A DNA stretch of 53,979 nucleotides from NCBI GenBank assembly GCA_052055015.1, contig JBQJIT010000026.1, one strand, 5' to 3'. Below, piece by piece: positions 1-36,477 of the stretch (the stretch's first letter is position 1; every line of letters starts with the position of its first letter). The notes beneath the pieces were generated by a model. That model was not told the origin of the DNA. It made no database searches and saw only the letters and a list, made by a program, of their open reading frames with translations. A program made the translations under genes and the position numbers. The DNA comes from Malassezia furfur. Its lineage: Eukaryota.

Positions 1-3000
1 TGGCGAGGGCGGCGCGCGGGCCGCACCCGGTGCGGAAGGCGCGGCCGAGCGTGAGGCCCGCGTCGCGCACAAACATGCCACGGTGCATCACCGAGTCGGC
101 CAGCGGCGCATGCACCACGGGGATGCTCGGCGTGGCGGCAACCGACACCTCGGCGGCGTCGAGCGCCTCGTCCGCCGTCGCGTCTGCGTCGAGCGCCTCG
201 GCCTCGTCAATGTGCACGTCGTCGGCAGCGTCGCGCGCGACGTCATACGTGGGACCCCGAGGGGCGCCTACCGCCGGTCCCTGGGGCGGAGGCGCGTTCC
301 CAAAAAAACTCGCACGCATCACCTGCACTTTGCGCGGCAGCGCATCGGTCGCCGGCGCATCGAAGCGCGCACCGACAGCCGGCGTCGCGGAGCGGCGCAG
401 CGCGGGCGTCGCGCCACGCGTACGCTGCACGGCTGGCACCCATACGTCGGGCCCGTGCACATGGTCGTCGCGCAGCTCGCTCTCGCGCATCGCGTTCGAC
501 GAGCTGCTCGTGTCGCTCTCGGGCTCGTCACCCAGGTGCATCGCCGGCACTTCGTCCTCCTCGTCCTCGCCGTCCTCCTCGTCCAGCTCCGCATCTTCCA
601 CAGGCTCGTCGCTCTCCGAGTCGTCCAAGCCGTAGCGCGAAAAGTGCTGCACGACAAACGTCCACGTGCCGCTCTCCGGCTCGTACGAAACAAACTCGGT
701 GTCCTTCTTGTTCTTGAGCTTGGCGATGTGCTGCTTGACGCGCGCGTGCGCCGGGTCCGTGAGCGGCTCGCGCGTTGCGCGGTCCAGCGGCCAGCAGCCC
801 TCGAGGCTGACGCGCGCGGGCACGTTGAGCCCATGGCCGAGCGGCGCCTTGGGCACCGGGACGTAGCCCGACTTGAGCCCATCGAGCGGCGTGTCCGACT
901 CGAGGTCCTCTTCCTGCGGGTACACGAAGCACTCCTTGGCACGCAGCTGCACGACGCCGCCGCCAATGTACGACAGGTCGGGCAGCGTGGCGAGGTCGAC
1001 CGGTTCCAAGAACGCCACGGCGCCAAAGCCCACGCGCGACACCGTAAAAGGCTGCACCGCCGCGAGCCGCTCGTAGTCCATCGCGCGCAACTCGGCGAGG
1101 GGCGGCGACAACACATAGTCGCCGTGGCGCGCAGGCGGCGGCGACGCGGCACGCACAGGCGACGGCGCACGCGCCCCTTTCGTCGGGCGCGGCACCTCAC
1201 GCGACACCGACACATCCGCGCGGTCGTCGTCGAGGACCGGCGCCGCGCTGAGTGTGCTCGTGTTGCCCACGTCTGCTGCGCGCTCCACGGCCGGCGAGAA
1301 ACGCGCGCGCGGCGTCGAGAGGCGCAGCGTGTCGCGCCGCACGCTCGGCGAACGCGCAAAGCTCGCGTCGCCGTCAAGCACGAGACGCTTGCTCGTCGAC
1401 CGCGGGATGAACGCCTGCGGCGACAGCGTCTGCGTGTCGCTTGGGCCGCGGAACAGCATGCTGCTCGAGCGCGCGGGCGTCATGGAGCGCGACGCACCAA
1501 GGCCGGGCGTGCTTTCGCGCAGCGGCGTCCGCTCCCGCGGCGACAAGTCGAGGCCGGGCGTCGCGCCCCGCAGCCGCGTCACCCGCACGGCGTTGCGCGG
1601 CGAGGAGCGGAAGGGCGACACAAGCGGCGCCTTGCTCTTGGGCGCGACATTGAACGGGAGCGGCGGCTGCGACGCGGCATTGGGCGCCGCCGTGCCGAGC
1701 AGGCCGTCCGTGCCGAACGGATTCGTGGTGAGCGACGCGGGCGACGCCGTCGCCGCGCCGGGCGCACCGCCGCCCAGCGTCGGCGCACTGCCCGGGGCCG
1801 GCGCCGACGCGCCGAGCGGCTTCGCAGCGCCAAATGTCGACGCACCAAACAGTCCACCGCCCGTAGACGCCGGCTGGCTCTGGCCAAACAGCCCGCCGCT
1901 CGGCGCCTGGCCAAATGTCGAGGTGCCCGTGTTGGTGTTGGACGCGGGCGCCTGGCCAAACAGCGACGTGCTCGGCTGGCTCGGGTTCGACGCCGTGGTG
2001 TTGTTGTTGCCGAACGAGAAGAGCGACGGCTTCGACTGCGTGTTGTTGGCCCCCGCGCCGCCGGCTGCGCCACCGCCAAACAGGCCGCCGGTCGATGGCG
2101 CGCCCGATGCGCCCTGCTGGTTGTTCTGGCCAAAGAGCGACGTGCTCGGCTGCGACGTCTGCGACGTGCTCGACTGGCCGAACAGCCCCGTGCTCGGCGC
2201 GCTCGGCTGCGCGGGCTTTGCGCCAAATAGGCTCGAGCCCGAGGACGCCGTGGTGCTCTGCCCAAACGCGCCGCCGGACGGCTGCGAGGATGCACCGCCG
2301 AACCCAAAGCTCGGCGCCGCCGTCGCAGGCTTGGCACCAAACAGGCCGCCGGTCGTGCCACCGGTCGCACTTGCGTTGGTGCTCTGCCCGAACGCGCCGC
2401 CAGGCGCACTGGACGGCGCACTCGCGTTGTTGTTCTGTGCACCAAAGCCCCCGAACGAGAACGCAGGCTTGTTGGCCTGCGTGTTGTTTTGTGCACCGGC
2501 GCCAAAGCCGCCAAACGACGGCGTCGAAGACGCCGCGCCGGGTGCCGTCGACGGCGCACTGCCAAACAGGCCACCGGGCTTAGGCGCATTGTTGGCGTTG
2601 TTCGCCCCGAACGAGAAGGAGCTCGTGGTGTTTTGTGCGCCACCAAACGGCGTCGCACCCGGCTGCGTGCCGGTGCCGGTGGTGCTCGATGCGCCGAACG
2701 AGAACGGCGTTGACTGCGGCTGCTGCGCACCGCTACCAAACCCGCCAAAGGCGGGCTTGGCGCCCGTCGATGCGTTGTTTGCACCAAAGCTAAAGCCCGT
2801 TGAGCCGGACGACGGCTGTGTCGTCGCGCCCGTGTTCTGCCCAAAGCTGAACCCGGTCGAGGGCTGCGTCGTGCTCTGTCCGAACGGCGTCGCACCTGGC
2901 TGCTGCTGCTGCTGCTGTTGCTGCTGCTGTGCGCCTTGGCCGAACAGCGGCATGCTCGACGTCGAGCTGCCGAACGCCGTGCCTGCCGGCTTGTTCTGCC

Positions 3001-3940
3001 CAAACAGGCCCGCGGACTGCGTGGGCTGTGCACCGAACGCGGGCGTCGACGACGCGCCGCTCGGCTGGCCAAACAGCCCGCCGGTGCTGGGCGCCTGCGG
3101 CTGCTGGCCAAACAACCCGCCGCCGAGCGGCTGGCCGAACGTCGACGTGGGCTGCGAAGGGTTCGTCGCGCCAAACGCGCTAGGCTGTGCGCCCGTACTC
3201 GCACCAAACGCCGGCGTGGTGCTCGGCATCGCGGCACCAGGCGCTCCCGTGCCCTTGGAGCGGCCCTGGCGGTAGTCCTGCAGACGCAACTCCTCGGGGC
3301 TCATACTCGCATACGCGGGCATCGACGCGATGGACTGGTGCACGTCCCAGTTCTTGGCGTGCGCCTTGGGCTCGTTCGGCGTCGCATCCTCGCGGTAGGG
3401 CGCGTAGGGTGTCGTGGCCGTGCCCTGCGTAACCGAGGTCGCACCGAGCGGCGCGCCGCCAAATCCGCCAAACGCGGTGGGCGCCGCCGGCTGCGGGGCG
3501 CCCGTGTTTTGCTGTCCGAAGAAGCTGGTGTTTTGCTGTGCGCCAAAGCCGACGCTTGGCTGCGCGCCAAATGCCGTGGGCTGCTGCGCAGGCTGCTGCC
3601 CGAACCCGAGCGTGGGCTGCGAAGGCTGCGGCGTGGACGAAGCGCCAAACGCGCCAAAGCCCGTCGCCGGTTTCGGCGCACCAAATGTGCTGCCCGAGTT
3701 TGCCTGACCGAACGCGAACGGCGCCGGCTGCTGCGATGTGCTGGTCGGCTGGCCGAACGAGGTGCTCGGTTGCGACTGCCCAAACGCACTGGTGCCGGTA
3801 CTGCTCGGTTGGCCGAACGCGCCGAACGAGGGCGTGGCGCTGGTCTGGCCAAACATGCCGCCCGTGCCCGGTGCCGATGCGGCGTTAGACGCCTGCTGGT
3901 TCTGTTGGCCGAACCCACTAAAGGACGACGCGCCAAACAT
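1..3940 (-). CDS. NUP98: Nup98-Nup96 nucleoporin precursor (Nup145/Nup189-like), 3'-truncated by the window edge
   Basis: Absent from the ORF track because it has no stop in the window. Manual translation from ATG 3940 (MFGASSFSGFGQQ...) gives FG/GLFG repeats, a GLEBS-like segment (HQSIASMPAYASMSPEELRLQDY, ~3272-3340), and an autopeptidase domain ending GTWTFVVQHF|SRYGL (HFS codons 646-638, in frame with 3940). An acidic Nup96-like N-terminus follows (KVQVMRASFF). Confidence 0.93.
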   Translation of the reverse strand, partial: MFGASSFSGFGQQNQQASNAASAPGTGGMFGQTSATPSFGAFGQPSSTGTSAFGQSQPSTSFGQPTSTSQQPAPFAFGQANSGSTFGAPKPATGFGAFGASSTPQPSQPTLGFGQQPAQQPTAFGAQPSVGFGAQQNTSFFGQQNTGAPQPAAPTAFGGFGGAPLGATSVTQGTATTPYAPYREDATPNEPKAHAKNWDVHQSIASMPAYASMSPEELRLQDYRQGRSKGTGAPGAAMPSTTPAFGASTGAQPSAFGATNPSQPTSTFGQPLGGGLFGQQPQAPSTGGLFGQPSGASSTPAFGAQPTQSAGLFGQNKPAGTAFGSSTSSMPLFGQGAQQQQQQQQQQPGATPFGQSTTQPSTGFSFGQNTGATTQPSSGSTGFSFGANNASTGAKPAFGGFGSGAQQPQSTPFSFGASSTTGTGTQPGATPFGGAQNTTSSFSFGANNANNAPKPGGLFGSAPSTAPGAASSTPSFGGFGAGAQNNTQANKPAFSFGGFGAQNNNASAPSSAPGGAFGQSTNASATGGTTGGLFGAKPATAAPSFGFGGASSQPSGGAFGQSTTASSGSSLFGAKPAQPSAPSTGLFGQSSTSQTSQPSTSLFGQNNQQGASGAPSTGGLFGGGAAGGAGANNTQSKPSLFSFGNNNTTASNPSQPSTSLFGQAPASNTNTGTSTFGQAPSGGLFGQSQPASTGGGLFGASTFGAAKPLGASAPAPGSAPTLGGGAPGAATASPASLTTNPFGTDGLLGTAAPNAASQPPLPFNVAPKSKAPLVSPFRSSPRNAVRVTRLRGATPGLDLSPRERTPLRESTPGLGASRSMTPARSSSMLFRGPSDTQTLSPQAFIPRSTSKRLVLDGDASFARSPSVRRDTLRLSTPRARFSPAVERAADVGNTSTLSAAPVLDDDRADVSVSREVPRPTKGARAPSPVRAASPPPARHGDYVLSPPLAELRAMDYERLAAVQPFTVSRVGFGAVAFLEPVDLATLPDLSYIGGGVVQLRAKECFVYPQEEDLESDTPLDGLKSGYVPVPKAPLGHGLNVPARVSLEGCWPLDRATREPLTDPAHARVKQHIAKLKNKKDTEFVSYEPESGTWTFVVQHFSRYGLDDSESDEPVEDAELDEEDGEDEEDEVPAMHLGDEPESDTSSSSNAMRESELRDDHVHGPDVWVPAVQRTRGATPALRRSATPAVGARFDAPATDALPRKVQVMRASFFGNAPPPQGPAVGAPRGPTYDVARDAADDVHIDEAEALDADATADEALDAAEVSVAATPSIPVVHAPLADSVMHRGMFVRDAGLTLGRAFRTGCGPRAALA
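2900..2929 (-). repeat. (CAG)n microsatellite encoding Gln10 in the Nup98 FG region
   Basis: Plus strand reads (ctg)6 ttg (ctg)3, in frame with the NUP98 ATG. Confidence 0.9.
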
Positions 3941-4336: not shown

Positions 4337-7300
4337 TTAGAGCTCAAAGCGGTACGCCGGGGGCTCGGTCCAGAGGTCGCCCAGCACCTCCTTCGTGTGC
4401 GTCTGGTCAAACTGGGGCAGCTGCGCAAACTCGCCCTTGGCCACAAAGCCGCGCAGAGGCGCCAGAGGGTTGGTCGAGTTGGGCTTGGCCGCCTCCTTTT
4501 GGAAGGCATCGACCCAGTCATCGTACGCAACCATCTCAGGCTGCTTGAGACCCTGGGGCGCAGGGATGTCCTGGAGGTCGAGCGGTGCCTCGTTGCGGAT
4601 GTGGAAGACATCGTAGTTGCTCGTCCACGTCTTGGGCGACGCCACGAGCTTACCAAAGATCTCCGAGAACCAGTCGGCGGGCGTCTCGGTAAAGACGCTC
4701 TTGGACCGCGGCGCAAGGCCGAGCTCCGCGCAGCCCTTGTACAGGCGCCACAGGAAGCTGTCCTCGTTGGGGTGGTAGCGGCCCGAGGCGCTGCCGCCGA
4801 GCACACCGGGGCGCACCGTCATGGCAGGCACACCGCGCTCGTGCATGCGGCGCGTGAGCATCTCCGACACCCACTTGGACTGCGAGTAGCCGTTGAACAG
4901 GCCCGTCTTGAGCGTGTCCAGGTCGAGGTCCTCCATCACCACCTCGTCCGTCTTGGGCTCCGCTGTGAAGGTGAGCCACATGTTGGTCGAGCCAATGTTG
5001 GCCACCGCCTTGACCTTCTTGTCCGACGCCAGGCGCAGCACCTCGCGCGTCGAGTGGGTGTTGACGGGGGCAATACCCTGGTAGCCAATCAGGTGGTCGG
5101 CCTTGCCACTCGCGTGCACGATCAGGTCGACCGTCTCGGCGAGCTTGGTCCAGTCCGCCTCGGACAGGCCAAGGTGCGGCTTGCTCACGTCACCCGACAC
5201 GACCGACACACGGTTCAGCGACTTGAGCGACTTGAGCTCGCGCTTCTCGGCCATCTGCTTGATGCGCTGCAGGCCCTCGTCGGGCGAGCCGCGGACCAGG
5301 GCGGTGACGTGCGCGTTGGGGAGCGCCTCGAGCACCGCCTCCAGTGCCGAGCTGCCGAGGAAGCCCGTGGCGCCGGTCACCAGCACCTCTTGCTTCTTGC
5401 TCGGCTCGAGGATCGCCGGGTCAAACGGCTGCAGGTGGGCCACCGTCTTGGGCAGGTCGTCGAGCTTGTCGACCTCCGAGGCGTAGTCGAACTCGGCAAG
5501 CGGCGCCGTGACCTTGCTGGTGGGCGTCGCACCCGAGGCCGACGCACCGCCGGGCGCAGCGGCGGTCTTCTTGGCCGGCGCATCGCCCGTGTTGCCCTTC
5601 TCGGGAACGCCACCCTCCTTCTCGGCGATGGCGTCCGCGACAATCTGGCGCAGCGCAGCAATCGACACGGGGCCGAGCAGCTGCAGCTGCGTAACGGTCG
5701 CGCCAAACTCGCTCATGAGGATCGCGCTCAGCTTCGAGGCCGAGAGCGAGTCGAGACCGAGCGTGGACAGGAACATGGTGTCGTCCACGGTCTCGATGTC
5801 GACGTTGAGCAGCTTGCCGAGGAGCGTGCCAACCGGGTCGGCCTCTGCCTCGCCCTCCGCACCGTCGTTGTCGGCATCGTCGTAGTGCTCGACAAGGTGC
5901 GAAATGGACCAGAGGTTCGCAGGCGAGATCTCGTGCATGACCTTCCAGTCCATCGGCTGGATGAAGTAGCCGGCGTGGTTGGTGCCGCCCATGATGAGAC
6001 GCGCGATCGACTGCGCAATCGACGTGCACAGCTCACGCGAGTTGCATGCCAGGGCGTCCATCACCTTGAGCGCGGCGTTGTTCGACTTGGAGCGCATCTG
6101 GGCGTACACACCAATGTCCGAGATGGCGGGCACGGCGTACGAGATGACGTTGCGGTGCTCCTGCGCGAAGCGGTTGAAGTAGGCCTGCGCCGCGTTGTAG
6201 TTCGCCTGACCGGGGTTGAAGAAGAGCGCGGCGGTCGACGAGAACAGGAAGAGGAAGTCGAGCGTCTGGATGTCGATCAGCTCGCGCACGACGTTGAGCG
6301 CGCCAATCTTGGACTTGACGACCGTGTCGAACTTCTCCTTGTCCATCTTCATGAACTGGTCGTCGCGCAGGACGACCGACATGAGGAAGATACCGCCGAT
6401 CGGGCCGAGGCTGCGCGCCGTGTCAAACACGTCGTTCATCGCCGACGGGTTGAGCGCGTCGGCGGCCATCACCTTGATGGTCACGTCGGGGAACGCGGGG
6501 TCACGCACCAGACGCTCGAGCGCCAGACGGTCCGAGCGGGAGATCTGGCCGCGGCGACCGGTGAGCACAATGTTGCGCGCACCGAGGTACATGAGGAATT
6601 GCGTCAGGCGCGGACCGAGACCACCACAGCCACCGATCAGCACGTACGACTTGCGCGGGTCGTACACCTTGTACGCGTTCCACAGCTTGGTGCGCGCGTC
6701 GGGACCGATCTCGGACGAGAGGTCGGTCACGATCTTGCCGATGTGCTTGCCCGACTCCATCAGGCGGTACGACTCGACCAAGCCGTTGGCGCCCTCGAAC
6801 TCGTGGCCAATCAGGCAGCGGAACGGCTCGCGGGCGTGCTCGGCGGCAATCTCGTCGAGGAGCGCGCCCATGCGCTCGGGCGCGTGCACACCGAGCAGAC
6901 CGAGCTCGACGGCGATGTAGTTGATCGCCTTGGCGAAGCCGGCCATCGACATGGGGTTGCCTGCGAGATGGTCACGCTTCGAGATGTCGACAAAGCGGCC
7001 GAGGTAGCCGAGCGACTCGATACCGGCCTGGAGCGCAGCGCCCTGCAGCGAGTTGAGCACCACGTCGAAGCCCGTCTTGCCGCGCTTGGCGAGCCACTTG
7101 AAGCCGGCCTGCTGCCACTCGGCAATGCTGCGCGAGTTGGCCATGTTCTCGTACGGAACGCCGAGGTTGTTGTGCAGGTAGTCGCGCTTCTCCTGCGACG
7201 ACACCGTGCAGAACACCTCGAGACCCTTGCGCTGCGCAATCTGGATCGCGCACAGACCCACACCACCGGCGGCGGCGTGGATGAGGATGGTCTCGCCCTT

Positions 7301-10300
7301 GCGGATCTGCGCGAGGTGCACCAGACCGTACCACACGGTGCCGTACGCAATGGGGTACGCAGCGGCCTCCTTGTTGGTCATGTTGTTGGGGATCTTGGTG
7401 ATGGCGTACTCCGAGGCCATCGCGACAGTACCCTCACGGACACCGCCCGAGGTACCCATCACACGGTCGCCCACGGCCACGCGGCGCACATCCTTGCCCA
7501 CGGCCTTGACCACACCACCAAACTCCGACAGGCGGTCGGTGGCGGGGAGAAGACCGGTGGCCGACAGAATGTTCTTGAAGTTGAGCGCCACGGCGTCGGT
7601 CTGCACGAGCACATCGTGCGGGGCGAGGTGCGGCGGGTAGTGCGTGTGCGGCGCAATGGCTTGCACGCTGGCCGGCTGGCCCTCGATGAGCTCGAGCACC
7701 CAGTCCTGACCCTGGAACTCGGTGGGGTGCATCACGGTCTGCTTCACGAGACGGCGGCCGTACAGGCGGCCGTTGCGGATGATGTTGAACACCTCCACGC
7801 TGCCGTCCTTGACCTCGTGCTCGAGCAGGCGGTCGAGGATCGCGTCGCGCTGGCCGCGGGTGTAGGCCTTGTCGAACGCCACGTAGACCGACTTGAGCGT
7901 CGGAATCTCGTTGGTGATCGTACCGGCCAGACCCAGACCACGCGCACCGTCGGTCGAGTCGTCCGCAAGCACCCAGAGCTGGCCCATGGGCGACTCGCCA
8001 AACGCCTCGCGCACGGCCTCGACCACCTCGTACTCGGTGTCGGGCTCGTGGTAGTAGGCAAGCACGTGGTCGTTCACGCGGCGGAAGCGGCCCGAGCTGC
8101 GCGGCTCCTCGGCAGGCATCACCGAGGGCAGCGGGAAGCTCGGCCAGGCGTTGTCGCCGCGACGCAGGAAGCCGACGCTGAGCGTCGGGCTTGCCTTGCT
8201 GAACGCCGTCACGCCGAGCGCCTCGAGCGACACCGGGTTGCTCGTGTAGAAGAGCTGCGCAAGCGACTTGGCCGCAGGGTTCACCTCGGCAAACAGGGCG
8301 TAGCCGCCAGGAACCAGCAGCTCGTCCACGGCCTTGACCGCGGTCGAGGCGTCCGTCACCGAGCGCAGCACGTCGCTCGACACAACCAGGTCAAACGTCG
8401 AGGGGATCGTGCGCTGGAAGTCGGCAATCGCCGCCGGCACGTCGTACGGGCCGGTGAAGAAGGCATCGGTGCCCTTCGCCGGGTTGGCCACGTTCAGACG
8501 CACCAGGTCGATGTACAGGCCGCGCTTCTGTGCCCACGCCACAAGCGGCTGCAGGTTGAGCTTGCGGCGGCGCGCGTACAGCTCGAGCACGCGGAACACG
8601 CGGCGCGGCTCCTGCTGCAGCGACGACGAGATGAGCGACTGGGCCGCCTCGACGACGCTCTCGCCCACCTCGGCACTGACGCCGGGCAGGTCAAACAGGC
8701 GGTCCTGCAGGCCGTCGGCGCACACCTTCGCGGCACTGCCGCGCTGGAGCGCCTCGGCGACCGCGCCCTCCTCGTCGTGGGCGGCCATGTCCTGCACGAA
8801 GCTGCTCGACAGCTGCGGCTGCAGGCGGTACTCGTCGTTGAACGAGGCGGTGGCGTCAAACGCACGCGGCTCCCACGACTCGGTGTAGGCCTCGCGCTCC
8901 TTGACCGTGTCCTTGATACGCGTGCACTCGAGACCACGCAGGAACGCGAGCGTCTTGCCCGTGTTGCGGTCAAACATCAGAATGTTGTGCTTGATGTGGT
9001 GGTCGTTCGAGATGAGCGTCTGGACGTAGAGCACGATCTGCTTGGCCGCACGCACCTCCTCGGGCGTGGCGCGCATCGCGAGGATGTCGAGGTGGTTCGG
9101 CAGGAAGGCGTCCACACCGAGCTTGCTGCCGTCGAAGGGCAGCGCGGGAATCCACGTGCACAGGAAGGCCGAGTCCAGCAGACCAGGGTGGAACACCATC
9201 TGCTGCGACTCGGGGTGCGTCCAGAGGTCGGGGAGCACGTCGACAAACGCGAGGTAGTCGTCCTCGCGGGTGGTCGAGCCACGCACCTCGTTGATCATAC
9301 CAAAGGCGCCCGTGTGCTGCGAACCGTTGGGCTTCAGACGGTCGTAGAAGGTCTGGCCGTCCATGATGATGTCAAAGTGGTCGAGCCAGTTCTCACCAAA
9401 CACCTCCTGCAGCGAGTCGGGGCCGACGCGCGTGTACTCGGTCGACATGTGACCCGAGGCGTGCAGCTGGTCGTAGATGATACCACCGTCGTTGACCGCG
9501 TTCTTGCCCGAGGAGCGGAACTCCCAGCCGCCGTTGATGCCCGTCTCGACAAAGCGGGCGTACTTCGGCTGGCCCTCCTCCTCAATGACAAACGCACGGT
9601 GGATGTCCATGTCGGTGATGGTGCGCGCACCCGCCTCGAGCGCCGACTCGGCGTAGCCGGCACCGGGGAAGATGATCGTGCCACGGATCTTGTGACCCTT
9701 GGTCCAGCTGTGCGTCTGCGCATTGATACGGAGCATCTCGCTGCACAGCGGCGGACCCGGCGGGCGGCAGCGGATGTGCTCGGGGAAGCTGATCTCGGTC
9801 GTGCGCTTCGGCTTGGGCAAGAAGGGGTACGGCGGCAGCTCCGGCAGCTCCGAGTTGATGCCGAGCGGGCAGTCAACAAAGTCATCCGAGTACAGCTTGT
9901 ACACGATCATGTTGCGCTCGCCCGCCTGCATCGACTGGCCAACGGCAGTGAGGAACTGCGTGACCTCGCCGGGGGTGTCGCGCGTCTCGCCCTTCTTGAA
10001 GTTGGGGCGGCGCGCCGACGACACAATCGTCGTGCGCTCGGCCTCGATGGCACGCGTGATCTCGTCCATGTACGAGCCCAGCACCGAGTGCGGCGCAATC
10101 TCGACAATCAGCAGACCACGGTCCTGCTCCTTACGGTACTGCTCGAGCGCCTCGATCGACTCGCGGAACAGCACAGGCGAGCTGACGTTGTCCCAGCAGT
10201 ACGCGGCGTCGAGCGACTCGCCCACCTCGTGCATGCGGCCGTGCACCGTCGAGATGAAGCGGCGCGTCGGCACGTTCTTCTCGGCGTCGACCAGCGGGTA

Positions 10301-12586
10301 GACCTCCGACAGGAAGGGCTCCTTGCACGGCGACACCATCGGCGAGTGGTAGGGACCACCCACACGCAGCTCACGCGCAAAGATGCCGGCAGCCTCGCAC
10401 TTCTTGACGACCTCGCGGATGAGCTTCGTCTCACCCGACACCGACACGGCCTTGGTCGAGTTGCTCGCCGAGACCCACAGGCCGGTGGTCACGTTGTTCT
10501 CCTTCATGACCTCGTCGAGGATGGCCTGCGCCTCCTCGCGGCTGATACCGAGCGCGGCCATCGTACCGTCGACCGTGTCGAGCAGGCCGAGCGCGTTGGA
10601 GCGCGCAATGGCCGTGCGGATCGCCTTCTCGTGGCTGAAGGCACCCGAGGCGTACATCGCGGCAATCTCACCGACCGAGTGGCCCATGACCACGTCGGGC
10701 ACCACGTTCAGCGACACCCACAGGTCGTACAGAGCGATCTGGAAGATGGTGATACCAATCACAATCGCCTCGACCGACCAGTGACCCGACTGCGTCTTCT
10801 GAACGTTGGTGTCCTTCGACGAGGAGAACAGACCGCTGTTGACAAACTCGCCCTTGTGGTAGCGCTGCACCACCTCAAACGAGCGGTGCACCGAGTCACG
10901 GAACGCACCAAAGCGCGCGTACAGGTGGCGACCCATGTCCTCGTGCTGGGGACCCTGACCACAGAACACAAACGCCTTGAGCGGGTTGAAGTCGGGCGAC
11001 GAGGTGGCCGTCGTCTCGTTGAACTGCAGCGGCTCGTTGGGCGACGCCACGGCGAAGGCCATGTTGGGGTTACCGCGCGCACGCTCCGTAATGGCACGCG
11101 CCATGAGCTCCGCCTCCATCGGGTTCGACGACTTGCCCCAGAACTCCTCCATCGAGGTCTCGAGCGAGGTCACCGCGCGGTTCGACAGCGCACCCACCGC
11201 CACAAGCATCGGGTCCGTCGCAGCCGGCGGCTTGAAGTTCGCAATGCGCGCCTTGTTCGGCACACGCTCCATGACCGTGTGCGAGTTGGCACCACCGAAA
11301 CCGAACGAGGAGAGCGACACAATGAACTTGCCGTCCTTGCTCAGCTTCTTCTCGGGAAGCGGTTCGTAGGCAGTCTGCACCTGGATCTGGAAGTCGTCCC
11401 AGTGAATCTTGGGGCTCGGCTTCTGGAAGTGCAGGTGCGGCAAGAGGTAGCCCGTGTCGAGGGTGTAGCAGTTCTTGATCAGACCCACGAGACCAGCGGC
11501 AGGCTCCAAGTGGCCCACGTTCGTCTTGGACGAACCGATGCGCAGCTTGTCGTCGCTCGAGCGGCCAGGCGTGAAGACCTGGCCGACGGCGTTCGCCTCA
11601 ATCGGGTCACCGACCGGCGTACCCGTACCGTGGCACTCGACGTAGACCGTCTCGTTAAAGTCACGCTTCGCCTCCTTGTAGGCGGCGATGGTGGCGGCCT
11701 TCTGCTGCGGGCCATCGGGCAGCGTGATACTCTTACCCTTACCGTTCGCATTGATGTGCGTACCGGTGATCACCGAGTACACGTGGCTACCCAGGCGCAC
11801 GGCGTCCTCGGTGCGCTGCAGCACAATGACCGTGCAGCCCTCACCACGGACGTAACCGTCAGCAGACGCATCGAACGTGTGGCAGAGACCCGTCTTGGAC
11901 AGGGTACCGAGCGTCGAGAACGACAGCGAGGCATCCGGCGCAAGAATCAGGTTGACCGCAGCCACGACCGCCATGTCACAGTCGCCACGCAGGATGGCCG
12001 AGCGCGCAAGGTGCAGACACGTGATACTCGAAGAGCAGGCCGTGTCGAGGTAGATCGACGGACCGCGCAAGTCGAACAGGTACGACAGACGGTTGGCCTG
12101 CATCGAGAAGGCCGCACCGGTCGCACTGTAAGGACCCATGTCGTACATGTCCTTACCAAGGTTGTGCACGTCGGGCGAACCCGTGACGTACACACCCGTG
12201 TTGGTGCCACGGTAGTTGATACCCGAGTCCTCGAGCGCCTGGTACACACACTCGACCAGCACGACTTGGTGCGGGTCGATCTGACGTGCCTCGGCGGGCG
12301 AGATACCAAACTCGAGCGTGTCGACGTCCGTGTGAGGGTCGACAAAACCACCCTGATCGGTGATCACCTTACCAGGGACACCGCCGTCCTGGGTCATCGC
12401 CTCGGCGTTCCAACGGTCCGCCGGAACACGGCCAATGGCGCAGCGGCCCTCCTTGAGCAGCTCAAAGTACTCCTTCTTGTCGCGTGCTCCAGGAAGACGA
12501 AGGCCAATACCGACCACGGAGATGCTAGGCGGGCGCTCGTCCTGGCCTTGCGACTGTTGGTGCTGGTTGTGCGTAGTGCTATACAT
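4337..12586 (-). CDS. Iterative highly reducing type I polyketide synthase with terminal thioester reductase: KS-AT-DH-(pseudo-MT)-ER-KR-ACP-R, 2749 aa, intronless
   Basis: KS DTACSSS/HGTGT/GHLE; AT GHSVG and YHS; DH HKIRGTIIFP and HPGLLD; ER LIHAAAGGVG; KR GGCGGLG, LRDD, GQANYNAA; ACP LGLDSL; R domain VLVTGATGFLG and GYSQSKW. Confidence 0.95.
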   Translation of the reverse strand: MYSTTHNQHQQSQGQDERPPSISVVGIGLRLPGARDKKEYFELLKEGRCAIGRVPADRWNAEAMTQDGGVPGKVITDQGGFVDPHTDVDTLEFGISPAEARQIDPHQVVLVECVYQALEDSGINYRGTNTGVYVTGSPDVHNLGKDMYDMGPYSATGAAFSMQANRLSYLFDLRGPSIYLDTACSSSITCLHLARSAILRGDCDMAVVAAVNLILAPDASLSFSTLGTLSKTGLCHTFDASADGYVRGEGCTVIVLQRTEDAVRLGSHVYSVITGTHINANGKGKSITLPDGPQQKAATIAAYKEAKRDFNETVYVECHGTGTPVGDPIEANAVGQVFTPGRSSDDKLRIGSSKTNVGHLEPAAGLVGLIKNCYTLDTGYLLPHLHFQKPSPKIHWDDFQIQVQTAYEPLPEKKLSKDGKFIVSLSSFGFGGANSHTVMERVPNKARIANFKPPAATDPMLVAVGALSNRAVTSLETSMEEFWGKSSNPMEAELMARAITERARGNPNMAFAVASPNEPLQFNETTATSSPDFNPLKAFVFCGQGPQHEDMGRHLYARFGAFRDSVHRSFEVVQRYHKGEFVNSGLFSSSKDTNVQKTQSGHWSVEAIVIGITIFQIALYDLWVSLNVVPDVVMGHSVGEIAAMYASGAFSHEKAIRTAIARSNALGLLDTVDGTMAALGISREEAQAILDEVMKENNVTTGLWVSASNSTKAVSVSGETKLIREVVKKCEAAGIFARELRVGGPYHSPMVSPCKEPFLSEVYPLVDAEKNVPTRRFISTVHGRMHEVGESLDAAYCWDNVSSPVLFRESIEALEQYRKEQDRGLLIVEIAPHSVLGSYMDEITRAIEAERTTIVSSARRPNFKKGETRDTPGEVTQFLTAVGQSMQAGERNMIVYKLYSDDFVDCPLGINSELPELPPYPFLPKPKRTTEISFPEHIRCRPPGPPLCSEMLRINAQTHSWTKGHKIRGTIIFPGAGYAESALEAGARTITDMDIHRAFVIEEEGQPKYARFVETGINGGWEFRSSGKNAVNDGGIIYDQLHASGHMSTEYTRVGPDSLQEVFGENWLDHFDIIMDGQTFYDRLKPNGSQHTGAFGMINEVRGSTTREDDYLAFVDVLPDLWTHPESQQMVFHPGLLDSAFLCTWIPALPFDGSKLGVDAFLPNHLDILAMRATPEEVRAAKQIVLYVQTLISNDHHIKHNILMFDRNTGKTLAFLRGLECTRIKDTVKEREAYTESWEPRAFDATASFNDEYRLQPQLSSSFVQDMAAHDEEGAVAEALQRGSAAKVCADGLQDRLFDLPGVSAEVGESVVEAAQSLISSSLQQEPRRVFRVLELYARRRKLNLQPLVAWAQKRGLYIDLVRLNVANPAKGTDAFFTGPYDVPAAIADFQRTIPSTFDLVVSSDVLRSVTDASTAVKAVDELLVPGGYALFAEVNPAAKSLAQLFYTSNPVSLEALGVTAFSKASPTLSVGFLRRGDNAWPSFPLPSVMPAEEPRSSGRFRRVNDHVLAYYHEPDTEYEVVEAVREAFGESPMGQLWVLADDSTDGARGLGLAGTITNEIPTLKSVYVAFDKAYTRGQRDAILDRLLEHEVKDGSVEVFNIIRNGRLYGRRLVKQTVMHPTEFQGQDWVLELIEGQPASVQAIAPHTHYPPHLAPHDVLVQTDAVALNFKNILSATGLLPATDRLSEFGGVVKAVGKDVRRVAVGDRVMGTSGGVREGTVAMASEYAITKIPNNMTNKEAAAYPIAYGTVWYGLVHLAQIRKGETILIHAAAGGVGLCAIQIAQRKGLEVFCTVSSQEKRDYLHNNLGVPYENMANSRSIAEWQQAGFKWLAKRGKTGFDVVLNSLQGAALQAGIESLGYLGRFVDISKRDHLAGNPMSMAGFAKAINYIAVELGLLGVHAPERMGALLDEIAAEHAREPFRCLIGHEFEGANGLVESYRLMESGKHIGKIVTDLSSEIGPDARTKLWNAYKVYDPRKSYVLIGGCGGLGPRLTQFLMYLGARNIVLTGRRGQISRSDRLALERLVRDPAFPDVTIKVMAADALNPSAMNDVFDTARSLGPIGGIFLMSVVLRDDQFMKMDKEKFDTVVKSKIGALNVVRELIDIQTLDFLFLFSSTAALFFNPGQANYNAAQAYFNRFAQEHRNVISYAVPAISDIGVYAQMRSKSNNAALKVMDALACNSRELCTSIAQSIARLIMGGTNHAGYFIQPMDWKVMHEISPANLWSISHLVEHYDDADNDGAEGEAEADPVGTLLGKLLNVDIETVDDTMFLSTLGLDSLSASKLSAILMSEFGATVTQLQLLGPVSIAALRQIVADAIAEKEGGVPEKGNTGDAPAKKTAAAPGGASASGATPTSKVTAPLAEFDYASEVDKLDDLPKTVAHLQPFDPAILEPSKKQEVLVTGATGFLGSSALEAVLEALPNAHVTALVRGSPDEGLQRIKQMAEKRELKSLKSLNRVSVVSGDVSKPHLGLSEADWTKLAETVDLIVHASGKADHLIGYQGIAPVNTHSTREVLRLASDKKVKAVANIGSTNMWLTFTAEPKTDEVVMEDLDLDTLKTGLFNGYSQSKWVSEMLTRRMHERGVPAMTVRPGVLGGSASGRYHPNEDSFLWRLYKGCAELGLAPRSKSVFTETPADWFSEIFGKLVASPKTWTSNYDVFHIRNEAPLDLQDIPAPQGLKQPEMVAYDDWVDAFQKEAAKPNSTNPLAPLRGFVAKGEFAQLPQFDQTHTKEVLGDLWTEPPAYRFEL

Positions 12587-12701
12587 ATTGCGGGAAATGG
12601 AAAAGGAAGATGCAAGTGTAAGCGTTGGATGGAAGAAGTGTGGCGCTCACTTCAAGAACACAACGCAAAGGGATTGATAGAATGAGTATACAACCGAACC
12701 A

Positions 12702-12733
12702 GCGGAGAATATGAACGGCGGAGAATATGAACG
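12702..12733. repeat. Perfect 16-bp tandem duplication GCGGAGAATATGAACG x2 upstream of the PKS
   Basis: 12702-12717 and 12718-12733 are identical. Confidence 0.9.
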
Positions 12734-13270
12734 TCGTGTCAGACAAAAGTGGCGGTTCTGTCAGACAACAACAACGCGTATACCAAAGCTGATGGTAGTA
12801 GTTGGGAGAAAACCGACCGACCGGAAAGATACACCCAACTTCCCGCGTTTCGAACAACCCAACTCGTGCGCGAATCGAATCGTCTTGCGTGTCACAGCCC
12901 ATTCTATTATTTGCTATGCTACCCCAGTTTACGCCCAGCAACTGACATGCGCCACGCTGCTTGGGTCAACGTCTGCTATCACGCGGCCTGGTCAATGCAG
13001 GGATAGGCGGGCGTCTTCCTTTGTTCGGGGAAGCTATCTACGTTTACGCGATTTGATTCGCTGATGCGATGCTGAGAAAGCGAAGGATGGCGCCGAGGCG
13101 ATGGGAAATGGGCCAATGAAATTAAGTACGCAGCTTTCGCCGGCGCATCCCCTTTGTAGGGTGACGTCAGCCAGTGGGAGCCATGGTTGCACAGCCCTGA
13201 CGCGTCAGCACACGCAACACACGCCGCGGACCCTGGTTAAAGTCCGCCCTGACTCTGCTATCGACGGCGC

Positions 13271-16051
13271 TCACGCGAACGACCAATCAGCGCCCACGTC
13301 GCGGGGACTGACCCGGGAAGGCGCACGATCCGTGCGCGAAGGTCCTTGAGCGGCCGTAGCGGCGCCTCCGTCAGGCACCGCCGACGTCACACGGTCCGCC
13401 AAATCGCACTGGTTGAGCATATGCGCGAGCCGGCGATCCAAATGCTCCACGGATTCCTTGCTGTCAGTCCCCGCGTCCCACGGAGTGGCCGCCTTGTGTG
13501 TACGCTCCGGGACGGGCGCGCCGTCTTCCTGTAGATCCGCGTGGAACTGCCATAGGCTCTTGCGCAGCTCCATGATCTCAGCGCGCGAGCTCTCGATGGT
13601 ACCCCGTAAGCTTGCTTGTTGCGCCGCAAATTCCTCGAGCTGTGAGTGAAACGTTTGGTTGGCTTGGCTCTTCTCCATCTCCGACGCCGCCTGCGTCAGG
13701 TGCTGTGACAGCCGCGCGAGCGAGCGCCGCGTCGAACGCGAGCGCTCGGCCCGCCGCATCGATGCGTCGGGCACCATCGACTGCGTCACCGCGGCATCCT
13801 GTGTGGTGGGCGTGGACGACGGCGAGAGTGTTGCGTCGCGCGCATCGGAAGGGGCAGCGGCAGCGGCAGCGGCAGCGGCAGCGACGTTGCGCCGGGGCGA
13901 CAAAGATGCGATCCGTGCGCGTTCCTCGGTGACATCTGAGCCGTACACTTCGCGCGATGTATCGCCGTGTTCGCTCCACAGTACGCGCATCGTGTCGGCA
14001 CTTAGTAGCTCCGAATCTTGGGGCGTCGAGCGGTTCGAGGCAAGGGTCGCGCTCGGTGCATCGCGACTGTCTGGCTGAGACGGCGCCGTCCCAAACGCCA
14101 TGCGCCGTGGCAGCGGAGGCGCATGCGATGACGTGGCGGAGCCCGTACGGCGGGGGACGGGCACATTGGCCGACTGCGACGCGATGGCCACGTTCATGAT
14201 CTGCTGGAACGCGTCCTCAATCTGAACGATCAGCGCGTCCGGATCGGAAGTCGCGGACGCCGTCATGGGCGTTGCATGCGTCGGGACCCGGGGCGTACGC
14301 GGCGAAGGCGATGCGGATGCATGCGGCACCAAGGTATCGTGAGCGGCGCGCGCGACATCCGCACCCCGAGCGCGGGCCACGGGTGCGGGCGCAAGGGCGT
14401 CCAGGAGCGTACGCTGCATTGTAGGTGCTGCAGCCGCGGCCGGGCGCTCGACAACCTCATGCTCGGCAGCGGCCGACGTGGGCGGCTCGTCGTCGGGCAA
14501 GGGCGATGCAAAATAGACGTGCTCCTCTTCGCTCAACGGTGCGGCGGACGTAGCCGACGCCCGCGGCGCGGCCTGCGGCGTGAGGCTGAGCGCAGGGGTA
14601 AAGGAGGTGGGATGCGTAGGCGATGTGGGGCTCGTCGGCAAAGGAGAGGAGGTGCGTCCTTGTGCGGTTATCACCGGCGACGTGGTGCGCTCCAGTGTCT
14701 GGGTCGAGGACTCAGACGAGGAATCGAAAGACGTTGCGCTGCTGCGTGTCGAGATGGACGGGTTTCTTGCGGAGACGCGCCGCGGGTACTGAGCGTACGG
14801 CTGGCGCAACGAGCGTAGTGAGCGAAGGGAGCGTGCGTCGGCGGGGGCCGCACTAGCAGCCGCCGCAGGCTCCCATGCATGACCGACAGCCGTACCGAAT
14901 TGCACGTCCGTCTCACCCTCGTCACGCGCATGCTCCGGCGGCGGGGGTGACGTCGGCGCCGCATTCGGTGGCGTCGAAGTCGCGCCAGGCGACGTCGACC
15001 GCGAGGCGCTCAGGGAGCGGTGGCGCTCCGACGACTGGTCCGAGGTCGGAAGCTGCTCGGACAGCATGCGCGGCGATACCGAACTTGTCTCGGACGCCGC
15101 CAGGGTCGTGGGAGAGTGTACCAGCTCGTTTCGGTAAAACAGGGGCCCATTGCTGCGCGCCGGCGCCGAGTCCTTGCGTACCGGCTGCGGGAGCAGCGGT
15201 AATGACATACTCGAGACATTGCTTGTATCGTTTAGGTCCTGCGTCGATGGCGCGTCTTGCAGACGAGCCAGCGACGAGTTGCTCGAGTTGCGCGCCGAGT
15301 CCGACGTGCCTTGTGGGCGCGAAGGCGTTAGCGACGGGTCGGTAAACGTGCGCATGATTGGGAATGGCTTCGTGTGCGCTTTTTCACCGCGCGTTGTAGG
15401 CGAAGGCATGGGCGGAGTCGCGGTTCCCGAACGCATGCGCTCAAGCGTTTTGCGCATCGACGACAGTGACAGGCTAGGCGAGCGCCGCGTGCGGCGGCCG
15501 CTGCTCCCGATAGAAGCCGTGTCATCCGCATCGTCTTCTGCGCGTCCCTTGTTCTTGGGCGTGGCCGGGCGCCGCCGCGGCCGGAAGGTGGGCATCGCCG
15601 GGAGCGTCATAACTGAACCCGTGGGCGATTTGGGCAGCGGCGGCACATCGCGCATCATGATGGCGCGCCGCGACGCTTTCTCGGAATCTTCCATATCGTG
15701 CAAATTGGGTGCACTCACGGAACGCGGGAGTTCCGCGAAGCGCCGACGGGTATCCGGGGAGAACGGAGCCTGCCGCCGCCCGTCTTCTCGCATGCGCAGC
15801 GCAAAGTGGGACTCGCGCAGACGCGCGACGGCCAGTTCGCGGTTATAGTCCGGCGAACCGGCACGCTGCGCTGCGTTTGGATTTGGACCGCGCAGATAGC
15901 CCCGGAGCGCGCTGATCTCGCCATGCGACGGGATCAGCGGGAGGACCGACAGATCGTACCGGGACGCCGCAGTGCGGCCCAGTGCCCGATCTGTCTGGGC
16001 CTCCGTGAGGCTCCCCAGTGAGTCCTGTTGGCGCACCGTGGGTAACGACAC
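13271..16051 (-). CDS. Hypothetical Ser/Pro/Ala-rich, largely disordered protein with a C-terminal coiled coil; start uncertain (GTG 16051 or ATG 15793)
   Basis: 926-codon ORF filling the gap between the PKS and SMF; heptad-like C-terminus (SQLEEFAAQQASLRGTIESSRAEIMELRKSLWQF); no recognisable family motif. Confidence 0.75.
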   Translation of the reverse strand: MSLPTVRQQDSLGSLTEAQTDRALGRTAASRYDLSVLPLIPSHGEISALRGYLRGPNPNAAQRAGSPDYNRELAVARLRESHFALRMREDGRRQAPFSPDTRRRFAELPRSVSAPNLHDMEDSEKASRRAIMMRDVPPLPKSPTGSVMTLPAMPTFRPRRRPATPKNKGRAEDDADDTASIGSSGRRTRRSPSLSLSSMRKTLERMRSGTATPPMPSPTTRGEKAHTKPFPIMRTFTDPSLTPSRPQGTSDSARNSSNSSLARLQDAPSTQDLNDTSNVSSMSLPLLPQPVRKDSAPARSNGPLFYRNELVHSPTTLAASETSSVSPRMLSEQLPTSDQSSERHRSLSASRSTSPGATSTPPNAAPTSPPPPEHARDEGETDVQFGTAVGHAWEPAAAASAAPADARSLRSLRSLRQPYAQYPRRVSARNPSISTRSSATSFDSSSESSTQTLERTTSPVITAQGRTSSPLPTSPTSPTHPTSFTPALSLTPQAAPRASATSAAPLSEEEHVYFASPLPDDEPPTSAAAEHEVVERPAAAAAPTMQRTLLDALAPAPVARARGADVARAAHDTLVPHASASPSPRTPRVPTHATPMTASATSDPDALIVQIEDAFQQIMNVAIASQSANVPVPRRTGSATSSHAPPLPRRMAFGTAPSQPDSRDAPSATLASNRSTPQDSELLSADTMRVLWSEHGDTSREVYGSDVTEERARIASLSPRRNVAAAAAAAAAAPSDARDATLSPSSTPTTQDAAVTQSMVPDASMRRAERSRSTRRSLARLSQHLTQAASEMEKSQANQTFHSQLEEFAAQQASLRGTIESSRAEIMELRKSLWQFHADLQEDGAPVPERTHKAATPWDAGTDSKESVEHLDRRLAHMLNQCDLADRVTSAVPDGGAATAAQGPSRTDRAPSRVSPRDVGADWSFA
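13854..13883 (-). repeat. (GCAGCG)5 hexamer repeat encoding poly-Ala
   Basis: Five tandem gcagcg units on the plus strand; the protein reads NVAAAAAAAAAPS. Confidence 0.85.
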
Positions 16052-16316: not shown

Positions 16317-18269
16317 CTAAGCATTTGAGGGGTCCTTGAGAGTCGAGACGAGCACGTACACGTCCGCAATGCAAATCAGTGCAAACACCGCATAGGACAG
16401 CGTGTTTACCGCGATACTGTTGCTGAACGCATGGAAGTACGTGGGACCGGACGCCTCGTGGTCGCTGTTGGGCGAGCGGAAGAGCGCGGCATAGGCACGG
16501 CGCACACGTGCACCGAATGTCAGCGCCGGCACATCGGGCGCATCGGGACTGGCTCCCACCTCGTTTAGAATCGGCGTTACGCTGCCGTAGTTGGCAACGC
16601 CCGACTCAGGATGCATCGGTTCCTCTCGGATCAATTCGCGCCGCATTCGCTTCCGCGAACCGGTGAGGAGAAGGAGGGGCAGGGTCACAAATGGAAGGGC
16701 CATGGACAGTGCCACCTGCGAGGCAACAAGCATCTCGTCCAGCCCTGAACGACCCGCCAGTGCGGCCACTATCATCGAGGGAATCACAGCAATAGCACGC
16801 GTCAAGAGCCGGCGCATAAATGGCGTCAGCCGCCAGTGGATGAACCCTTCGGAGATAATCTGGCCCGCCAGCGTCACTGTGATACTCGACGATTGTCCAG
16901 CGGTCAGCAGCGCAATGGCAAATAGGATCGAGGGCACTTTACCGACCGTGTCGCGGAGCAGCTCAAAGGCCTGGAACAGGTCTCCGACAACCTCTGTGTC
17001 ACCCGTGTTGTTGTTGCCATAGTAGAACGCTGCAGATGCGACAATCAAAATGGCACTGTTAATCGTAATGGCAAACAGCACAAGGCAGATGGCAATGTCC
17101 CACGAAGCGTGCTTCAGACTGAGCTCGATGTGCTCCAAAGATGCTGGCTGCTGGGGAGGCAGCCTGTCGTCTTGCACCACCTCGGGCACCTTAAGGTGCT
17201 TGGCCTTGATGCTCCGATACAGGTTACGGCACGTCCGCCAGAATGTCATGGGACGTGGCCGCGAACGACTCCGCGAGCTTGTGCGCGACGCGGTGCGCGT
17301 AACCGAAGGCCTCGATTCCGGATTGTTGTGGTCCGTCTCTTCTTCGTTGTCCCCCTCGTCGGCCTCTGAACTCGCCGAGCTGCCCACCTCCTCATATCCT
17401 TCGAGGCGGTCGATCGTTGCAAAGTGTGAACCAAGCACCAGCGAGTGAGGCATGATGGTTGCACCCAAGATCGAGATAGAGACATAAAGTCCGTCCGCAT
17501 CGACAACTTTTTCAGAGGGGATATAGCCCTTAAACACGTCGCCCCAGTCCGGCTTGACGCGCACCAGAAGAATAATAAAGCACGCAAGCACAATTAGCAC
17601 GAGCGCACCAATAAGTGACTCGAAGATGCGGACGCTCATGCTGGGCCGGTACAAAAATAGGACGAGGAAAACATCTGCCGACGTGACAAGCACGCCGCCC
17701 CAGAGCGGCAGACTGGGAAAGAGGAGGTTGAGCGCAATGGCACTCCCGATCAACTCGGCCAGCTCGGTTGCGATGATCGCACCCTCGTTGATGATGTACA
17801 AAGGAATCAATAGGCCCCAGTATCGTGCACGCATCCCTGGTGCATCCCAGTCCGGCGGCGCATCGGAATCCGGCGGCAGGCCCAGGACCAAACGGCGCGT
17901 CTGCACGGCCAGATCCATGCCCGTTACTGCGCCAAGACGACAGCAAAGCACTTGTAGGAGTACGGCGAAAAGGCCGGACAGCAGCACCGTGAATAGCAGA
18001 CTGTAGCCAAAACGTGAACCGGCCTCCATGTCCGTGGCCCAGTTGCCGGGGTCACAGTAAGCCACAGCGGCAATGAGGCCCGGCCCCACAAACGACATGT
18101 GCCGGACCACCGTCTGTACAACTCCCTGCCACCATGTGGGCTTACTGTTGTCCCCAATCAAGGGCATGTGTTCACCCAGATCCTGGCGAACAGACGACAC
18201 CTTGGTTGTTGTTTGCTTCAAGGCGTCTTCCGCTCTGGAACCGCATCGGCTCCGAGATGTTTCCTCCAT
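16317..18269 (-). CDS. SMF: NRAMP/SMF-family divalent metal (Mn/Fe) transporter; alternative start at 18167
   Basis: GPGLIAAVAYCDPGNWATD (DPGN), GATIMPH, AGQSSSITVTLAGQIISEGF, SQVALS; multiple hydrophobic helices. Confidence 0.95.
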   Translation of the reverse strand: MEETSRSRCGSRAEDALKQTTTKVSSVRQDLGEHMPLIGDNSKPTWWQGVVQTVVRHMSFVGPGLIAAVAYCDPGNWATDMEAGSRFGYSLLFTVLLSGLFAVLLQVLCCRLGAVTGMDLAVQTRRLVLGLPPDSDAPPDWDAPGMRARYWGLLIPLYIINEGAIIATELAELIGSAIALNLLFPSLPLWGGVLVTSADVFLVLFLYRPSMSVRIFESLIGALVLIVLACFIILLVRVKPDWGDVFKGYIPSEKVVDADGLYVSISILGATIMPHSLVLGSHFATIDRLEGYEEVGSSASSEADEGDNEEETDHNNPESRPSVTRTASRTSSRSRSRPRPMTFWRTCRNLYRSIKAKHLKVPEVVQDDRLPPQQPASLEHIELSLKHASWDIAICLVLFAITINSAILIVASAAFYYGNNNTGDTEVVGDLFQAFELLRDTVGKVPSILFAIALLTAGQSSSITVTLAGQIISEGFIHWRLTPFMRRLLTRAIAVIPSMIVAALAGRSGLDEMLVASQVALSMALPFVTLPLLLLTGSRKRMRRELIREEPMHPESGVANYGSVTPILNEVGASPDAPDVPALTFGARVRRAYAALFRSPNSDHEASGPTYFHAFSNSIAVNTLSYAVFALICIADVYVLVSTLKDPSNA

Positions 18270-36315: not shown

Positions 36316-36477
36316 CGCAGAGGGGTGAAGTGCCACGTGGGGTGTTGGACGTGTTGGACGGTGCACGGTGCGCCGAGCACCCAGCCACACACAACCGGGT
36401 AGTGCTGGGTGCATTGGTCCAGCCCAGCCTTGGCCCCATATATGGCCTTTAAGATACCATCTCATACTCTACATACA

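Follow-up and report, generated by a model that had tools for sequence, protein, structure and literature searches.

Among the fungi of human skin, Malassezia predominate, and their biology is defined by their dependence on lipids. The genus is described as lacking fatty acid synthase (FAS), lipid-dependent and in need of exogenous fatty acids (Wu 2015). When FAS and polyketide synthases (PKSs) were sought in Malassezia genomes, FAS was not found, and conserved PKSs with ketoreductase (KR), acyl carrier protein (ACP), NAD-binding and thioester-reductase-like domains were described, including three truncated M. furfur models without KR, ACP and reductase (R) domains (Triana 2017, PMC5603697). 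These proteins share less than 32% identity with other basidiomycete PKSs; the same study set them against the lipid PKSs of mycobacteria and asked whether they take part in lipid dependency. A genome note for M. pachydermatis names a PKS as the FAS homologue present (PMC4611691), one PKS or ketosynthase (KS) is reported in M. globosa (Saunders 2012, PMC3380954; NaPDoS2 paper, PMC9582728), and among six Ustilaginomycotina reducing PKS domains were reported only in Exobasidiomycetes sensu lato (Sharma 2015, PMC4607519). Here, we describe a 54-kb stretch of DNA (53,979 nucleotides of contig JBQJIT010000026.1, hereafter the window) that carries a complete gene of this kind. We consider it probable that this gene, the orthologue of the Malassezia PKSs, encodes an active single-module iterative type I highly reducing PKS (HR-PKS) that makes a linear reduced chain and releases it reductively. 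Both the gene and the hypothesis of a lipid role are already in the literature (Triana 2017). The window adds little: an unambiguous, complete gene model from the clade that includes M. yamatoensis, and motif-level evidence that points to an active, non-methylating, reductively releasing enzyme. The gene is real and looks functional.

We matched the minus-strand product against Pfam, where it hit 20 families and gave the order KS, acyltransferase (AT), dehydratase (DH), dead methyltransferase (MT), enoyl reductase (ER), KR, ACP and R, that is, KS-AT-DH-(dead MT)-ER-KR-ACP-R (Table 1). An initial annotation of this DNA had proposed a PKS reading frame with DH, ER, KR and a terminal R domain of the short-chain dehydrogenase/reductase (SDR) type, and the Pfam and NCBIfam matches agree with it, as do the intact motifs. 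To judge conservation, we used 25 aligned family members reaching down to 46% identity. The protein has a single KS, whose Cys-His-His triad (DTACS, HGTGT, GHLE) is invariant in 25 of 25. The same invariance was found for GHSVGE and Arg662 of the AT, whose GGPYHS motif has one GGAYHS variant; for His965, Pro974 and Asp1138 of the DH; for the AAGGVG nucleotide motif of the ER; for GGCGGLG, Lys2093, Ser2116 and Tyr2130 of the KR; and for GLDS of the ACP. No fungal FAS-specific domain (MPT, PPT, FAS helical, meander) was present among the 20 Pfam families matched, and the Pfam scan of the protein revealed no loading or ligase domain ahead of the KS.

The C-terminus is occupied by a reductase, and neither Pfam nor NCBIfam matched a thioesterase there. 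Pfam NAD_binding_4 covers residues 2403-2641 (153.9 bits), and the NCBIfam model TIGR01746, “thioester reductase domain”, covers residues 2401-2744 with 216.3 bits, just over its cut-off of 213.35. The Tyr2567-x3-Lys2571 pair is invariant (25/25), and Thr2534 is kept in 24 of the 25 sequences, the exception being one outgroup. Since the state of the Tyr/Lys pair and of the nucleotide motif is what distinguishes a redox-dead R* domain, and both are intact here, we rejected an R* domain of the Dieckmann-cyclase type. Peroxisomal targeting was likewise rejected, since the C-terminus (...YRFEL) and its variants in the homologs are unlike the consensus of the type 1 peroxisomal targeting signal.

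Between the DH and the ER lies an MT remnant that the initial annotation had not mentioned. Its matches at residues 1386-1440 fall under every Pfam cut-off, and its S-adenosylmethionine (SAM) motif I reads VLELYARRRK in place of GxGxG, with the glycines gone in all 25 sequences. Triana 2017 lists a “methyltransferase domain” for the Malassezia PKS; by motif, this domain is catalytically dead throughout the family set. With the SAM motif destroyed, the chain should be unbranched, carrying no methyl branches. The remnant lies in a region that is itself poorly kept: the 18 Malassezia-type homologs match the window protein with a mean identity of 83% for KS, 78% for AT, 82% for DH, 85% for ER, 85% for KR, 90% for ACP and 69% for R, compared with 58% for the DH-ER (MT/linker) region and 51% for the ACP-R linker. 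The catalytic domains are thus kept far better than the linkers, which is the pattern expected under purifying selection on function.

A full-length search recovered these 18 proteins at 2679-2752 aa and 67-97% identity. Seven carry Malassezia names, namely M. yamatoensis (86%), M. vespertilionis (76%), Malassezia sp. CBS 17886 (74%), M. pachydermatis (74% and 67%), M. sympodialis (72%) and M. nana (72%), and the records of M. yamatoensis, M. vespertilionis, M. sympodialis, M. nana and M. pachydermatis bear the titles “Type I Iterative PKS”, “hypothetical polyketide synthase” or “fatty acid synthase”. The next six proteins, at 45-48% identity, include Exobasidium rhododendri and Spizellomyces sp., and beyond them come solely multi-module bacterial proteins with scores summed over several modules. 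We built a maximum-likelihood tree of the 25 sequences (quick search, LG+G4, support by the SH-like approximate likelihood ratio test (SH-aLRT) only, rooted on the long Spizellomyces branch). The 19 Malassezia-type sequences, the window protein among them, formed one clade with SH-aLRT 100, and the Exobasidium group was its sister. Within the clade, the window PKS grouped with its 97% relative, beside the 90% relative and M. yamatoensis. It thus falls among named Malassezia species, in the clade that holds M. yamatoensis, in line with the earlier assignment of the DNA to a Malassezia-type yeast. The gene is retained across the Malassezia-type homologs recovered, which are monophyletic; by sequence, it is the orthologue of a PKS conserved across Malassezia. 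If both come from the same species, the intact gene suggests that the truncated M. furfur models of Triana 2017 may have been fragmented.

The two M. pachydermatis copies (P0009 and P0018) are sisters, one of them on a much longer branch than the other (0.21 against 0.033), and both keep all catalytic motifs. Being mutually closest, they point to a lineage-specific duplication, and PMC12722467 speaks of “both copies” of the M. pachydermatis PKS.

The architecture is rare, yet it also occurs outside Malassezia. The DH-ER linker (residues 1230-1655) is the most distinctive part of the family: when compared with 1.84 billion cluster representatives, it matched only 9 at E<=1e-3, of which 3 reached E<=1e-10 and 2 reached E<=1e-30. 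The top two matches stand for the Malassezia and Exobasidium groups. The third, P0226, is a protein of 2641 aa with 26% identity and the order KS-AT-DH-ER-KR-ACP-R, which the Exobasidium and Spizellomyces proteins share. A KS-only homolog search was swamped by multi-KS bacterial proteins with additive scores and was of no use for phylogeny, and an ESM Atlas search with residues 900-2749 returned only generic KR/ER PKS clusters (best score 0.90). A metagenome scan with universal KS motifs confirmed 612 stretches, and the 80 that were kept represent 78 distinct loci at 29-45% identity; none of them is Malassezia-like, and they were set aside. Bacterial proteins fill the hit lists, but we rejected a bacterial origin of the gene as unsupported: they rank high because their scores add up over several modules, and the closest true relatives are fungi.

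We then compared the protein with solved structures. Over the whole length, the best matches were fatty acid synthase (551 and 536 bits) and mycocerosic acid synthase (MAS, 520), followed at lower scores by Dictyostelium Pks16 (458) and LovB (372); the FAS entries, titled “Fatty acid synthase”, are presumably mammalian. Animal-type FAS and the mycobacterial MAS have the same KS-AT-DH-(pseudo-MT)-ER-KR-ACP order as the Malassezia PKS, and the dead MT of the PKS is a structural element, as it is in animal FAS. Animal-type FAS, however, ends in a thioesterase and yields a free acid, whereas the Malassezia PKS ends in a reductase. The AT alone also matched FAS best, namely its malonyl/acetyl transferase (96.3 bits), with PYHS aligned to AFHS, so that an aromatic Tyr stands where AFHS has Phe, and with the carboxylate-binding Arg conserved. 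By the residue rules for AT domains, the extender units would be malonyl, and the AT possibly loads the starter as well. In contrast, the KS alone (11207..12544 on the minus strand), set against single-KS solved entries, scored highest with CurL (331 bits) and PikAI (321), and lower with Pks16 (288), MAS (269), LovB (243) and FAS (about 240). By structure score, then, the KS resembles the KS domains of bacterial cis-AT modules more than it does LovB or animal FAS, and the likeness to FAS comes from the shared domain set and not from the condensing domain.

The best solved match of the R domain was the reductase domain of MxaA from myxalamid synthase (PDB 4u7w; 130.6 bits, E 7.5e-37), with TGATGFLG and YxxxK aligned, followed by another PKS R domain, carboxylic acid reductases and a mycobacterial peptide-synthetase R domain. 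MxaA is bacterial and part of an assembly line that joins PKS and nonribosomal peptide synthetase modules, and its R domain reportedly carries out a four-electron reduction to the alcohol; the likeness says nothing on whether the Malassezia enzyme stops at the aldehyde. Two further systems are comparable by description. CpFAS1 of Cryptosporidium parvum is also a fully reducing type I synthase that ends in an NAD(P)H reductase and belongs to a fatty-acid scavenger, and its R domain acts on C20-C26 acyl thioesters only (PMC2995488). CpFAS1, however, is an elongase of 25 kb and three modules that begins with an acyl ligase loading unit, whereas the Malassezia PKS has a single module and no loading domain. 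Bet1 of betaenone biosynthesis is also an iterative HR-PKS with a terminal thioester reductase domain, but by antiSMASH it is clustered with a stand-alone enoyl reductase and a stand-alone ketoreductase (PMC6657885, which cites Xu 2007 for product release by thioester reductase domains). The Malassezia PKS, in contrast, has its own intact ER motif and no cluster in the window. Against this PKS, LovB, which belongs to the clade of Bet1, scored lower than FAS and MAS did.

Together, these findings suggest the following mechanism. The AT would charge the ACP with malonyl units and probably with the acyl starter as well; condensation would fall to the KS; and KR, DH and ER would reduce the beta-carbon in each cycle, with no C-methylation. 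Since the architecture is single-module, the module would be used iteratively. The terminal SDR-type R domain would then use NAD(P)H to release the ACP thioester as an aldehyde or primary alcohol, so that the predicted product is linear, unbranched and largely saturated. M. pachydermatis is reported to keep acetyl-CoA carboxylase, ATP-citrate synthase and an elongase (PMC12722467), so the genus has a supply of malonyl-CoA. As for the chemistry proposed in the initial annotation, the unbranched chain and the release as aldehyde or alcohol fit the sequence, whereas its suggestions of a long chain and of fatty-acid extension found no support, since the sequence fixes neither length nor starter.

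Several observations weigh against an active, fully reducing enzyme of this kind. The third DH motif reads GSxHTGAF in Malassezia and GASYTREF in the outgroups in place of the canonical GYxYGPxF, and the DH scores in Pfam are low, at 34 and 31 bits. The KS, as described above, lies closer to bacterial modular domains than to FAS or LovB. The programming of fungal HR-PKSs often leaves out ER or DH in some cycles, and full saturation is therefore not guaranteed. Finally, we found no product, knockout or expression study of a Malassezia PKS in the literature covered, subscription journals being outside that coverage.

The first alternative, which we regard as unlikely, is a FAS-like primary lipid role, in which the enzyme would supply the lipid-rich envelope with long-chain fatty aldehydes or alcohols, either built de novo or elongated from host-derived fatty acyl starters. 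In its favour, the genus lacks FAS (Wu 2015; Triana 2017), the gene is retained in the Malassezia-type homologs recovered, and M. globosa is reported to have one PKS only (PMC3380954, PMC9582728). Over its whole length the protein matches FAS and mycocerosic acid synthase best among solved structures, the window holds no cluster partners close to the gene, and the CpFAS1 R domain, active on C20-C26 chains, offers a precedent in a lipid scavenger (PMC2995488). However, Malassezia still needs exogenous fatty acids (Wu 2015), which means that the PKS is no replacement for FAS in supplying bulk acyl chains. The family is also not confined to Malassezia, since same-architecture relatives exist in the Exobasidium rhododendri and Spizellomyces records, and Exobasidium and Spizellomyces presumably possess FAS. 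Moreover, the protein has no acyl-ligase or loading domain ahead of the KS, unlike CpFAS1; its KS is not FAS-like; and chain length is not predictable from sequence. The lipid role put forward in the initial annotation gains from the unclustered position of the gene and loses from the relatives outside Malassezia and the continued lipid dependence of the genus (Wu 2015).

A bolder version of the lipid role, and to us a decidedly improbable one, is that the PKS is the only remaining de novo acyl-chain synthase in a eukaryote without FAS and feeds a dedicated pool of fatty aldehydes or alcohols, such as one for waxes of the envelope or for ether-type lipids, or else provides a trickle of fatty acid after oxidation. 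M. pachydermatis is the Malassezia species with the weakest lipid requirement, and its PKS duplication would then contribute to that weaker requirement. If it is true that the PKS builds lipid, the auxotrophy of these fungi would be understood differently and a fungus-specific target would be offered.

The second alternative, a specialised-metabolite synthase, also seems rather unlikely. Here, programmed and partly reduced cycles would yield a short- or medium-chain, hydroxylated or unsaturated aldehyde or alcohol that might act as a signal, a volatile or an antimicrobial; the genes for any tailoring enzymes would then lie elsewhere in the genome. Such behaviour is usual for fungal HR-PKSs, the closest matches of the KS are bacterial secondary-metabolite modules, the DH has a variant motif, and Bet1 is an HR-PKS with a terminal thioester reductase (PMC6657885). 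Yet the 54-kb window contains no P450, major facilitator superfamily (MFS) or ATP-binding cassette (ABC) transporter or Zn-cluster regulator; conservation is strong in the ER and in all the reducing domains; and a dispensable metabolite would not usually be retained across the recovered members of the genus. A silent or decaying relic without current function is very improbable, since the 8.25-kb open reading frame (ORF) is uninterrupted and the 19 Malassezia-type sequences have invariant catalytic residues and domain-biased conservation.

The gene model itself is straightforward. The homologs are collinear with the PKS protein from N- to C-terminus, and since they align from the first to the last residue, the gene is intronless. 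The ATG at 12586 is the first start codon past the upstream stop, and the composition of the product is ordinary. We also scanned the 14 further ORFs across the window for families (Table 1). They are housekeeping genes or, for 4 of the 14, have no family match, and no P450, methyltransferase, MFS/ABC transporter or Zn-cluster regulator was found among them. The claim that no tailoring enzyme, transporter or regulator adjoins the PKS thus holds throughout the window, with the qualification that it contains an Nramp transporter and an NF-YA factor, neither of the sort usual in polyketide clusters. The two immediate neighbours, first described as NUP98 and a disordered protein, were recovered as Nup98-96 and a Ser/Pro/Thr/Ala-rich protein.

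Table 1. Features of the window, with the domains of the PKS and the neighbouring genes.
Feature	Position	Strand	Residues (aa)	Details
PKS gene	4337..12586	-	1-2749	complete, intronless; 2749 codons plus stop; 2749-aa product
KS	11072..12526	-	21-505	Pfam 233.8 + 108 + 45.7 bits; C184, H319, H359
AT	10007..10972	-	539-860	Pfam 148.8 bits; GHSVGE S637, R662, GGPYHS
DH	8900..9730	-	953-1229	Pfam 34.4 and 31.4 bits, both over cut-off; H965, D1138
DH third motif region	9311..9355	-	1078-1092	GSxHTGAF
Structural linker and dead MT remnant	7622..8899	-	1230-1655	weak MT matches under cut-off
ER	6728..7621	-	1656-1953	Pfam ADH_N, ADH_zinc_N, ADH_zinc_N_2; AAGGVG
KR	6149..6649	-	1980-2146	Pfam 130.5 bits; GGCGGLG, K2093, S2116, Y2130
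ACP	5651..5827	-	2254-2312	Pfam 24.4 bits; LGLDS2280 attachment serine
Thioester reductase R domain	4355..5386	-	2401-2744	TIGR01746; TGATGFLG, T2534, Y2567xxxK2571
Intergenic stretch upstream of PKS	12587..13270	.		684 bp; may hold the promoter, presumed from gene coordinates
Antisense frame over PKS	4397..12685	+		2762 aa; rejected as a gene
Nup98-96	2..3940	-		autopeptidase and FG repeats; downstream of PKS, same strand
Ser/Pro/Thr/Ala-rich protein	13271..15793	-		840 aa; upstream of PKS; no family
Nramp metal transporter	16317..18269	-		family scan
VPS13	19446..29261	+		3271 aa; family scan
NF-YA factor	29827..31008	+		family scan
Dynein heavy chain, C-terminal part	32581..36465	-		1294 aa; stalk, AAA_9, C-terminal lid
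Dynein heavy chain, N-terminal part	39974..48871	+		2965 aa; through AAA4
Leucine-rich repeat (LRR) protein and septin				further ORFs of the window; family scan
Biotin synthase	50714..51922	-		Radical_SAM and BATS; family scan

The GC content is 57-72% per 2-kb bin across the window and 64-66% over the PKS gene, and because the DNA is GC-rich, both strands carry very long open frames between 4.3 and 12.7 kb of the window. The frame antisense to the PKS would encode a product rich in Arg, Gly, Val and Leu in which the Pfam scan found no family, and we rejected it as a real gene: it is a shadow ORF of the PKS in high-GC DNA. Coding DNA of high GC content typically carries shadow ORFs like this one, which could lead gene callers astray.

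VPS13, a bulk lipid-transfer protein, is encoded 6.9 kb upstream of the PKS and is probably a coincidental housekeeping neighbour, and biotin synthase may be relevant in that acetyl-CoA carboxylase, the source of malonyl-CoA, needs biotin. The dynein heavy chain of the window is divided between two genes, one on each strand, a split that is known from Ustilago maydis and fits a Ustilaginomycotina origin.

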